A stretch of 64,000 nucleotides of DNA from a virus (Duplodnaviria > Heunggongvirae > Uroviricota > Caudoviricetes): the IMG/VR virus record IMGVR_UViG_3300025944_000008. One strand, 5' to 3'. The notes under the pieces are model-generated. The model did not search any database. It saw only the letters and a program-made list of their open reading frames with translations, and was not told the origin of the DNA. Both the position numbers and the translations under genes were made by a program. Within the stretch, counting starts at the first letter, position 1, and every line of letters starts with the position of its first letter. Shown here piece by piece: positions 44,118 to 44,344 of this stretch.

Positions 44118-44191
44118 AGATCCCAGCGGGATTCGAACCCGCGACCTGCGAGTTGCTTATGCTCGCTGCTCCACCACTGAGCTATGGGACC
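44118..44191 (-). tRNA. tRNA-like (non-canonical 9-nt anticodon loop CAUAAGCAA)
   Basis: T-arm GCGGGTTCGAATCCCGC, acceptor GGTCCCA/TGGGATC, D-arm GCTCAGTGGTGGAGC. Confidence 0.4.
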
Positions 44192-44192
44192 G

Positions 44193-44269
44193 TGGCACGT
44201 CCGATGGGGATTGAACCCACGACCTCCCAGTTGCTTAGGCTGGGCGCTCTTCCTCTGAGCTACGAACGT
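44193..44269 (-). tRNA. tRNA-like (9-nt loop CCUAAGCAA), CCA encoded
   Basis: T-arm GTGGGTTCAATCCCCAT, acceptor ACGTTCG/CGGACGT + G + CCA. Confidence 0.4.
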
Positions 44270-44271
44270 AT

Positions 44272-44344
44272 TGGTGGGGAGGGTTGGAGTTGAACCAACG
44301 ACCCTCGGCTTATGGCCGACGCTCTAACACTGAGCTACCTCCCC
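44272..44344 (-). tRNA. tRNA-like (short anticodon loop CAUAA), CCA encoded
   Basis: T-arm GTTGGTTCAACTCCAAC, acceptor GGGGAGG/CCTCCCC + A + CCA. Confidence 0.4.

Follow-up and report, generated by a model that had tools for sequence, protein, structure and literature searches.

Three adjacent tRNA-like genes of a Caudoviricetes phage (Duplodnaviria; Heunggongvirae; Uroviricota) most probably encode non-decoding mimics of transfer RNA (tRNA) that are functionally tied to a neighboring gene for a PTH2-like protein, a reading to which we assign a probability of roughly 0.8. The genes, designated A, B, and C, occupy positions 44117–44344 of a 64,000-nucleotide (nt) stretch of IMG/VR virus record IMGVR_UViG_3300025944_000008, hereafter the window, and are encoded on its minus strand. 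B and C are two copies of one type, with a 9-nt anticodon loop that recurs in phages of widely differing base composition. Gene A has no anticodon and retains an invariant acceptor end. Both types lie downstream of the PTH2-like gene on the same strand.

Structure and conservation of the tRNA-like RNAs

RNAs A, B, and C span 73–77 nt. All three are called by ARAGORN, exceed the gathering score of 29 of the Rfam tRNA model RF00005 with 50–62 bits (E-values of at most 1.7e-8; table 1), and are folded into cloverleaves by RNAfold. A reading made from the sequence alone had described three consecutive tRNA-like genes with anticodon loops of 9, 9, and 5 nt, encoded CCA in two of them, and a shared core (C/A)UAAGC, and had allowed that a faulty hand-derived reverse complement might conceal standard 7-nt loops. 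The reverse complement is correct, and each of these features is borne out. The anticodon arm of A is a UCGGC/GCCGA stem closing the 5-nt loop CAUAA, that of B a CCCAG/CUGGG stem closing the 9-nt loop CCUAAGCAA, and that of C a GCGAG/CUCGC stem closing the 9-nt loop CAUAAGCAA. The acceptor of A (GGGGAGG/CCUCCCC) is followed by A73 and an encoded CCA (3' end ACCA), and its D and T arms are normal. B likewise encodes CCA (3' end GCCA), with A1-U72 and G73, and C, with G1-C72, G2.U71, and U73, is without an encoded CCA, CUA coming next. The core is common to all three, although in A its GC belongs to the stem, and the form AUAAGC that A has in common with B and C is specific to the window's own lineage.

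ARAGORN labels A as tRNA-Tyr(AUA) and both B and C as tRNA-Leu(AAG), but the 7-nt loops underlying these labels are forced, by opening a pair in A and by counting C1.A9 of B and C as a sixth, mismatched pair; standard loops arise in no other way. When B and C are read in this manner, C occupies position 37 and C.A closes the loop, and the B loop becomes a C.A-closed 7-nt loop, C-U-AAG-C-A. The cloverleaf, arms, and conserved elbow of a canonical tRNA are present in A, B, and C, as reflected in their Rfam scores and covariation, whereas a 5-bp stem with a 7-nt loop carrying U33 and a purine at position 37 is present in none, the loops being 5, 9, and 9 nt. Nor do A, B, or C have an 8-nt loop with a four-base anticodon after U33, as expected of a quadruplet decoder, or CUA, UUA, or UCA at the standard loop position, as expected of a nonsense suppressor; their loops hold UAA in the sense orientation and not its complement.

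Orthologues of A were collected through the neighboring protein, which is 88% to 68% identical among them. All keep the GGGGAGG/CCUCCCC acceptor, A73 or G73, and CCA, and their T stems covary. Conversely, the anticodon arm changes from one to the next: it is UCGGC-UAUAA-GCCGA in L109, CCGG-GUAAAA-CCGG in L269, UCCGG-UUCG-CCGGA in L264, and CCUGG-GAAA-CCAGG in L266 (L-numbers are labels of collected loci or contigs). More distant A-types, found in the same place after the same protein gene, have arms of 4 bp to 11 bp with GAAA, GCAA, CUUG, or GAGA caps. Four acceptor pairs (G1-C72, G2-C71, G3-C70, and G7-C66) never vary in the ten A-types compared, which represent six or more lineages, and all ten encode CCA. 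No anticodon is conserved across the series CAUAA, UAUAA, GUAAAA, UUCG, and GAAA, while orthologues of B and C keep UAAGC. Because its "anticodon loop" can be a UUCG or GNRA tetraloop, A can hardly be a decoder, and it seems unlikely that arms so variable would fit the ribosomal decoding site.

The B/C type is present in four direct relatives of the window (L109, L264, L266, and L269), in all of which B orthologues share A1-U72, G73, and the loop on covarying stems. Orthologues of C occur in L109 and L264 only, each with G2.U71 and U73. Pattern scans anchored on C-N-TAAGCAA and a T arm place the type in about 11 independent phage lineages, the loci themselves not all being independent. The contigs with family members include the AT-rich L001, L061, and L133, as well as L031, L051, L095, L143, L107, L108, L132, L136, L141, L142, L149, L165, L180, L195, and L252. 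Across contigs that differ widely in base composition, C-N-UAAGC-A-A is closed by a 5-bp stem with no fixed sequence; N, position 2 of the 9-nt loop, can be A, C, G, or U.

Aligned, 22 distinct members form a cloverleaf in which 94% of cells are paired and compensatory changes occur at 18 of 22 pairs. These values are reached in 0 of 500 shuffles, and when 3' partners are shifted by 1–3 columns, pairing falls to ∼40%. The would-be sixth pair of the anticodon stem is non-Watson-Crick in 18 of the 22 sequences, mostly C.A, so that conservation extends to the 9-nt loop and its C...A frame. A search for the UAAGCAA pattern in 185,579 bacterial and archaeal genomes, one per species, found no such tRNA; its 12 matches are archaeal intron-containing tRNAs or chance. 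The B/C family is apparently restricted to phages.

Related RNAs extend beyond this family. When the D arm, T arm, and a 20-nt spacing were fixed, which corresponds to an anticodon arm 2 nt too long, at least 119 viral loci were recovered. Among the matches listed, 53 have a perfect 5-bp stem and the outer loop positions pair, as Watson-Crick or G.U, in 35 of these 53; many long-arm tRNA-likes are thus six-pair stems with 7-nt loops. A second recurrent loop, N-N-UAAUGA-C, is found in L151, L164, L221, L226, L243, L247, L250, L251, and L270. A looser scan of viral contigs with CNTAAGCAA-N13-GGTTCRA gave 82 matches, mostly chance.

Other tRNA-likes and pattern matches were also noted. A third scaffold, at L111 4343–4415, L132 2920–2992, and also in L278, combines an odd D region, a 4-bp CGAG/CUCG stem, a UAAGC-containing loop, and a GCCA end, and sits ∼380 nt upstream of a PTH2-like gene. 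Long-arm or otherwise odd tRNA-likes near PTH2-like genes in L177, L272, L273, and L234 carry CUA, the amber-suppressor triplet, in the loop, and some of them have A instead of U33. The UAAGCAA pattern also matched intron-containing tRNA-Ile(UAU) of DPANN and other archaea (L087, L104, L084, and others), and the marine contigs L114, L110, L098, and L100, whose tRNA arrays look like the tRNA clusters of eukaryotic giant viruses. In these archaeal and probably viral tRNA-Ile(UAU), the UAAG at the 3' end of the intron pairs with C32–A35 and CA^A forms the 3' splice bulge.

Linkage to a PTH2-like gene and a three-helix protein

On one strand of the window, a promoter-like site is followed by the PTH2-like gene, the gene for a protein of 93 amino acids (aa), and the tRNA-likes, which lie at the 3' end of the transcription unit and face a convergent open reading frame (ORF). 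The promoter-like site is kept in position and sequence in the window, L269, L264, and L266. A simple consensus promoter scan did not flag it because its −10 hexamer matches at only three of six positions.

The same association is seen in unrelated contigs, where BLAST of flanking ORFs identified a PTH2-like gene adjoining the tRNA-likes. Across all collected loci, tblastn detected the gene in ∼55, and in most of these, one to three non-canonical tRNA-likes lie 8–470 nt downstream on the same strand. The control for linkage used the first 145 loci, which had been collected by DNA pattern alone. A PTH2-like gene is present in 19 of 22 loci that by inspection have genuine UAAGCA tRNA-likes, two of the three exceptions being truncated contigs, and in 0 of 117 other loci (0.95 Mb) from the same scans. 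With a looser automatic filter, the comparison is 19 of 28 versus 0 of 117 (Fisher p = 2.5e-17), where six of the 28 loci passing the filter are chance matches and not tRNAs.

The module occurs in both GC-rich and AT-rich phage contigs. L001, an AT-rich contig of 54.8 kb, has the same module order and no other tRNA in the 9.8 kb examined. In the cultured Myxococcus phage Mx1 (L270; OR576727), an annotated peptidyl-tRNA hydrolase (WNM70121.1) and a hypothetical protein (WNM70122.1) precede an unannotated tRNA-like with the loop AGUAAUGAC (record positions 60058–60132, corresponding to L270 6730–6804). A reverse test started from the Mx1 protein alone, and about 10 of the 17 viral loci so collected have adjoining non-canonical tRNA-likes. 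In several lineages, the tRNA-like is followed by a stand-alone S24/SipW-like peptidase domain of ∼100 aa; Pfam searches of the flanking genes of L001 and L107 gave nothing informative. Full-text literature searches found no published description of these RNAs or of the module.

The PTH2-like protein of the window matches Pfam PF01981 (PTH2, peptidyl-tRNA hydrolase 2) with an E-value of 1.3e-7 and 32.3 bits, above the cutoff of 23, as well as phrog_1866, a family of unknown function. Its best sequence match in the PDB, to Archaeoglobus fulgidus Pth2 (AF2095), is weak (E-value of 0.07). The family to which it belongs has 1212 representatives (50% identity; E-value ≤1e-3), most of 90–200 aa, in which H18 and E68 are invariant and R4, D6, Q15, and S23 are near-invariant. 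Catalysis by Pth2 depends on the Lys of a GKxAAQ motif and on an Asp. The protein is a divergent member of the PTH2 superfamily with a conserved polar site and at most a candidate peptidyl-tRNA hydrolase.

The 93-aa protein carries the motif ATxLCxLRAxxRGxxHL and is modeled by AlphaFold2 as a three-helix bundle with a predicted local distance difference test (pLDDT) score of 75. It has no significant fold match in the PDB, SmpB included, and no family match in Pfam, PHROG, PADLOC, or NCBIfam. Homologues adjoin the PTH2-like gene in L264, L266, L269, L001, L061, L133, L111, L132, L141, L165, L271–273, L277, and L278.

Genes A, B, and C are nearest the low end of a tRNA array whose other 40 members are canonical and cover 18 amino acids. 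The array has no Cys(GCA) or Trp(CCA) tRNA, and 34 genes of the window use 90 Cys and 167 Trp codons. An A1-U72 pair with G73 is typical of bacterial Trp tRNAs and U73 of Cys tRNAs; B resembles the former in its acceptor and C the latter, neither with a matching anticodon at the standard position. Megablast of the region against GenBank phages gave no nucleotide match, and a 931-aa protein of the window is ∼35% identical to proteins of the uncultured huge phages LR756500/501/503 (462–735 kb).

Several other features of the window and its array are listed in table 1. Between tRNA-Arg(ACG) and tRNA-Thr(GGU) lies a match that spans the entire Rfam model of bacterial class A RNase P RNA, keeps the catalytic-core strings GAGGAAGUUC, UUAGACGAAUG, and AACAAAACC, and is missing ∼105 nt of the specificity domain; it may be a phage-encoded, minimized RNase P RNA inside the tRNA array. 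The variable arm of tRNA-Ile(UAU) contains AUAAG, complementary to its own anticodon loop CUUAU. Two genes called as Leu tRNAs have short variable loops and hence a class I shape, unlike bacterial Leu tRNAs. Two pairs of ARAGORN calls overlap, and each such pair may include a miscall or an atypical gene. The array includes an HNH endonuclease gene, an arrangement repeated in L269 and Mx1, and a gene for a PARP-like protein is conserved within a few kb of the module in L264 and L266. Elsewhere, the window encodes a transfer-messenger RNA (tmRNA).

Table 1. Positions of the module and of other features in the window
Feature	Positions	Strand	Length	Details
tmRNA	19640–20000	plus		Tag ANDNVRVQSNLSAPLQAAA
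PARP-like protein	40464–41888	plus		WGR, PARP regulatory, and PARP catalytic domains
tRNA array	44117–53460	minus		43 tRNA genes by ARAGORN
tRNA-like C (second B-type copy)	44117–44191	minus		ARAGORN; Rfam tRNA 55.4 bits; 44191 to 44117: GGUCCCA UA GCUC AGUGGUG GAGC A GCGAG CAUAAGCAA CUCGC AGGUC GCGGG UUCGAAU CCCGC UGGGAUC U
tRNA-like B (B-type)	44193–44269	minus		ARAGORN; Rfam tRNA 50.1 bits; 44269 to 44193: ACGUUCG UA GCUC AGAGGAA GAGC G CCCAG CCUAAGCAA CUGGG AGGUC GUGGG UUCAAUC CCCAU CGGACGU G CCA
tRNA-like A (A-type)	44272–44344	minus	73 nt	ARAGORN; Rfam tRNA 62.5 bits; 44344 to 44272: GGGGAGG UA GCUC AGUGUUA GAGC G UCGGC CAUAA GCCGA GGGUC GUUGG UUCAACU CCAAC CCUCCCC A CCA
Three-helix protein	44352–44633	minus	93 aa	Directly upstream of tRNA-like A
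PTH2-like protein	44614–44949	minus	111 aa	First gene of operon; GTG start
Promoter-like site	45003–45031	minus		TTGACA-17 nt-TAGCTT; ∼55 nt upstream of PTH2-like GTG
tRNA-Ile(UAU)	45887–45978	minus	92 nt	Long variable arm GCGC-CAGAUAA-GCGC
tRNA-Sec model match	46612–46699	minus		40.9 bits, below gathering score of 47; no ARAGORN call; between two Ser tRNAs
HNH endonuclease	47130–47675	minus		Inside tRNA array
tRNA-Leu CAA and UAG	47708–47782 / 47787–47861	minus	75 nt	Short variable loops
Overlapping calls (Met, Met)	48122–48199 / 48189–48262	minus		Overlap of 11 nt
RNase P-like RNA	48617–48844	minus	228 nt	46.6 bits, gathering score 100; E-value 1.6e-13
Overlapping calls (His, Ile)	51117–51194 / 51193–51268	minus		Overlap of 2 nt

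Possible functions of the module

If A, B, and C are non-decoding mimics, they would be the RNA components of a conserved phage operon. The A-type RNAs would offer a conserved acceptor end (G1–G3, G7, A73 or G73, and CCA) on a normal elbow, their anticodon arm being an arbitrary capped hairpin, and the B-type RNAs would offer the conserved C-N-UAAGC-A-A loop on an anticodon arm 2 nt over normal length. Provided that they are expressed and processed as normal tRNAs, the mimics would occupy tRNA-binding proteins and never enter translation. The likeliest targets would be host tRNA-directed defense enzymes, for which the RNAs may serve as uncleavable or harmless competitors. The co-expressed PTH2-like protein, acting as an esterase, would strip damaged or dropped-off tRNAs of peptides or blocked amino acids, returning both tRNAs and ribosomes to use. 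In its passages on the jumbo-phage PTH2, Iyer et al. (2021; PMC7824862) proposes that this protein frees peptides from tRNAs cut by host RNases. We advance this decoy-plus-clean-up mechanism of counter-defense tentatively, at somewhat less than even odds.

Several points weigh against the mimic reading and its counter-defense form. Many loci are duplicates of the same contigs in different collections, and the invariance of TAAGC in the B/C family is partly a product of the pattern-based search. The 111-aa protein scores 22 bits against the NCBIfam Pth2 equivalog NF003314, for which the cutoff is 126, and it lacks the Lys of the archaeal GKxAAQ motif, having GTLAAQ in the window and M or V in relatives. 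Its model is of low confidence (pLDDT of 61), with top PDB folds that are all Pth2/Bit1 and all weak (E-values of 0.02–0.2). No host enzyme that the decoy might engage is known to have a target resembling N-UAAGCA or N-UAAUGA. Moreover, a pure decoy needs no tight linkage to a PTH2-like gene, so a direct partnership of RNA and protein would be favored instead; the linkage fits such a partnership and the counter-defense reading equally well.

One form of partnership is a rescue particle, in which the tRNA-likes dock the PTH2-like protein, perhaps with the three-helix protein, on stalled ribosomes or on 50S subunits that still carry peptidyl-tRNA, and the peptide is released; RNA and protein together would then do what a release factor does. 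The RNA genes and the protein gene are tightly linked in one operon across very different phages, the ligand of the PTH2 fold is a tRNA acceptor end, which is exactly what the A-types conserve, and a small basic helical protein is co-conserved, as SmpB accompanies tmRNA. The window phage itself invests in ribosome rescue, since it encodes a tmRNA. However, A-type arms of 4–11 bp are a poor fit to the 70S A or P site, no identity for aminoacylation can be made out, G3-C70 excludes the alanyl-tRNA synthetase route used by tmRNA, and binding between protein and RNA has to be supposed. We judge a rescue particle to be unlikely, and consider it slightly less likely still that the module is a tmRNA-independent phage release system in which anticodon-less and altered-loop tRNA-shaped RNAs carry or position a PTH2-like esterase and a helical cofactor on stalled ribosomes or on 50S subunits blocked by peptidyl-tRNA, the nascent chain being released with no codon read. 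Partnership could also be antagonistic: the PTH2-like protein would act on aminoacyl- or peptidyl-tRNA as a harmful esterase, serving in host shut-off or addiction, and the tRNA-likes would inhibit it as pseudo-substrates in the style of type III toxin–antitoxin systems. The operon arrangement and shared promoter-like site suggest co-transcription, the RNAs resemble substrates that translation can never use up, and the proteins, small and phage-borne, form a large family. Yet the RNAs are tRNA-shaped and downstream of the protein gene rather than a tandem repeat array upstream of it, unlike in type III systems; this role would not call for two separate conserved classes of RNA, A and B, and there is no match in PADLOC. 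This makes an antagonistic pair quite unlikely.

The RNAs might instead be real decoders, with B and C reading CUU (through AAG), a GCU-type codon (through AGC), or a four- to five-base codon such as GCUU(A), A reading UAU (through AUA), and the PTH2-like protein handling drop-off. The ARAGORN assignments of AAG, AAG, and AUA are consistent with this, as are a U at the place expected for U33 when the arm is read as 6+7+6, the Watson-Crick or G.U extra pair in 35 of the 53 related long-arm tRNA-likes among the matches listed, some relatives with ordinary anticodons such as GAU, GAA, or CUA, and the six-pair anticodon stem of tRNA-Sec. Orthologues of A with tetraloops argue in the other direction, as do the C at position 37 of B and C and a closing C.A that is kept rather than repaired. 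A class I shape with G73 or U73 provides no identity feature of bacterial Leu or Tyr tRNAs, no cellular counterpart was found by the pattern search of 185,579 genomes, and the loops of 9 and 5 nt differ from the 8 nt of known frameshift suppressors. A need for decoding is also not apparent: CUU, UAU, and AUA codons are rare and already served, the array has Leu-GAG and Tyr-GUA, CUU accounts for 81 of 901 Leu codons, and codon usage, examined as a motive, gave no reason for an extra decoder of CUU, UAU, or AUA. We regard decoding as improbable. More improbable still is that B and C are anti-anticodon RNAs. N-UAAG is the reverse complement of C32-U33-U34-A35-N36 in UAN tRNAs (Ile-UAU, Leu-UAG, Leu-UAA, and Val-UAC), which B and C would kiss and thereby sequester or protect. 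C is exactly complementary to the Ile-UAU of the window and B to its Leu-UAG, N is represented by all four bases across the family, and the same UAAG–CUUA pairing is seen in the intron-containing tRNA-Ile(UAU) of archaea and probable eukaryotic viruses. But the UAAUGA loop has no such target, N differs between the near-identical L031 and L143, the conserved C1, C7, A8, and A9 are left unexplained, and neither the A-type RNAs nor the PTH2 linkage is accounted for. As little weight falls on the view that the cloverleaves are processing punctuation or relics, that is, only cut sites for RNase P and RNase Z, stabilizers of mRNA 3' ends, or pseudogenes. Their place at the close of a transcription unit, opposite a convergent ORF, would suit punctuation, for which an acceptor/T half suffices; conserved UAAGCA and UAAUGA loops, an invariant A-type acceptor, encoded CCA, and intact D arms are neither required for processing nor expected of relics.

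Other candidates were considered and rejected. An origin of the phage genes from tRNA-Ile(UAU) introns was set aside, together with an anti-anticodon role, neither idea being compatible with the UAAUGA subfamily or the A-type. A minigene AUG-NNN-NNN-UAG overlapping the 5' acceptor strand is present in some lineages only, and a GUG...UAA mini-ORF in A is lost in L109. The B loop could pair with a GCUUA that precedes the PTH2-like start by 26 nt, but such self-regulation is not general because the GCUUA is present only in the window's own lineage.

Non-decoding mimics tied to the PTH2-like gene remain our preferred reading, and they are closest to the regulatory tRNA mimics that the sequence-only reading had offered as one of its options. 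That option holds as far as tRNA-shaped RNAs are concerned, to which genetic coupling with a PTH2-like protein is added here, while any regulatory target is conjectural. Its suggestion of degenerate copies is contradicted by the B/C covariation and by the invariant A-type acceptor end across lineages. Quadruplet-decoding or suppressor-like tRNAs, its third option, are poorly supported given A orthologue loops of GAAA, UUCG, and GUAAAA, the C at position 37, and the lack of a stop anticodon or an 8-nt loop in A, B, and C.

The current view of phage tRNA genes is that they are weapons against host defenses that cleave tRNAs, but unusual tRNA predictions within phage arrays tend to be written off as pseudogenes or given a Leu, Tyr, or Ile label. 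At least two classes of such calls are conserved, apparently phage-specific and, on the reading preferred here, non-decoding, which would turn an annotation nuisance into a defined module coupled to more than 1,200 PTH2-like clusters and to a small protein without a family match. The module is directly testable because the cultured phage Mx1 has it. Should they prove to be decoys, the RNAs would act as inhibitors of immunity directed at tRNA; should they be adaptors of the hydrolase, they would represent a new kind of ribosome rescue. In either case, we suggest that annotation pipelines drop the names tRNA-Leu(AAG), tRNA-Ile(AAU), and tRNA-Tyr(AUA) for such genes.

Comparison with known systems

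The PTH2 of jumbo phages is of the same superfamily as the window protein and has a similar setting, in large phages that carry RNA-repair genes and tRNA arrays (Iyer, Anantharaman, Krishnan, Burroughs & Aravind 2021; PMC7824862), and the passages of that paper on this protein make no mention of linked tRNA-likes or of a three-helix protein. The window family is divergent from the Pth2 equivalog, does not keep the canonical Lys, and is also found in a contig of only ∼55 kb (L001).

Frameshift-suppressor or quadruplet tRNAs such as SufJ (PMC4238358) resemble B and C in having an expanded loop on an otherwise normal cloverleaf. In natural frameshift suppressors the loop is 8 nt long, with U33 and a purine at position 37, whereas the window RNAs have loops of 9 and 5 nt, accept any base at position 2, and, in A orthologues, lose the loop altogether. 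Engineered tRNAs with 9-nt loops exist for five-base codons. Among natural phage RNAs, the "species 1 and 2" RNAs of T4 are stable tRNA-like RNAs from a phage tRNA cluster with no known function, and non-canonical tRNAs were reportedly described by Pope et al. in 2014 in cluster M mycobacteriophages, which we compare with the window RNAs by description only. Neither the T4 nor the cluster M RNAs are known to have a conserved protein partner, a conserved loop motif, or a family that spans lineages.

Y RNA or YrlA with Ro60 (TROVE) provides another case of a tRNA-like RNA module encoded beside its protein partner. The window RNAs have no Ro-binding stem; the Rfam YrlA model has no match at 44117–44344 and only weak ones elsewhere in the array (at most 25 bits against a gathering score of 69). 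Mx1 does have a TROVE/Ro60-like gene (L270 3587–5236), located ∼750 nt upstream of its PTH2-like gene.

In pairing an anticodon-less tRNA-like acceptor/T domain with a small basic protein, the ribosome-rescue system of tmRNA and SmpB has a similar composition. The window RNAs differ in that they have a full D arm and an anticodon-arm hairpin, no mRNA-like part or reading frame, and, in A, G3-C70 instead of G3.U70; the three-helix protein, SmpB's counterpart here, is helical and lacks a significant fold match to SmpB.

Also comparable are phage tRNAs that escape host anticodon nucleases through changes in the anticodon loop (van den Berg et al. 2023; PMC10264068) and the T5 tRNAs that act against PARIS and retron systems (PMC11464382; PMC11555353). 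Like the window RNAs, nuclease-escaping phage tRNAs have loops that differ from those of the host and are read as counter-defense. They are functional decoders with point changes in a 7-nt loop, whereas in the window RNAs the length of the arm and the size of the loop have changed, and the A-type has dispensed with an anticodon.

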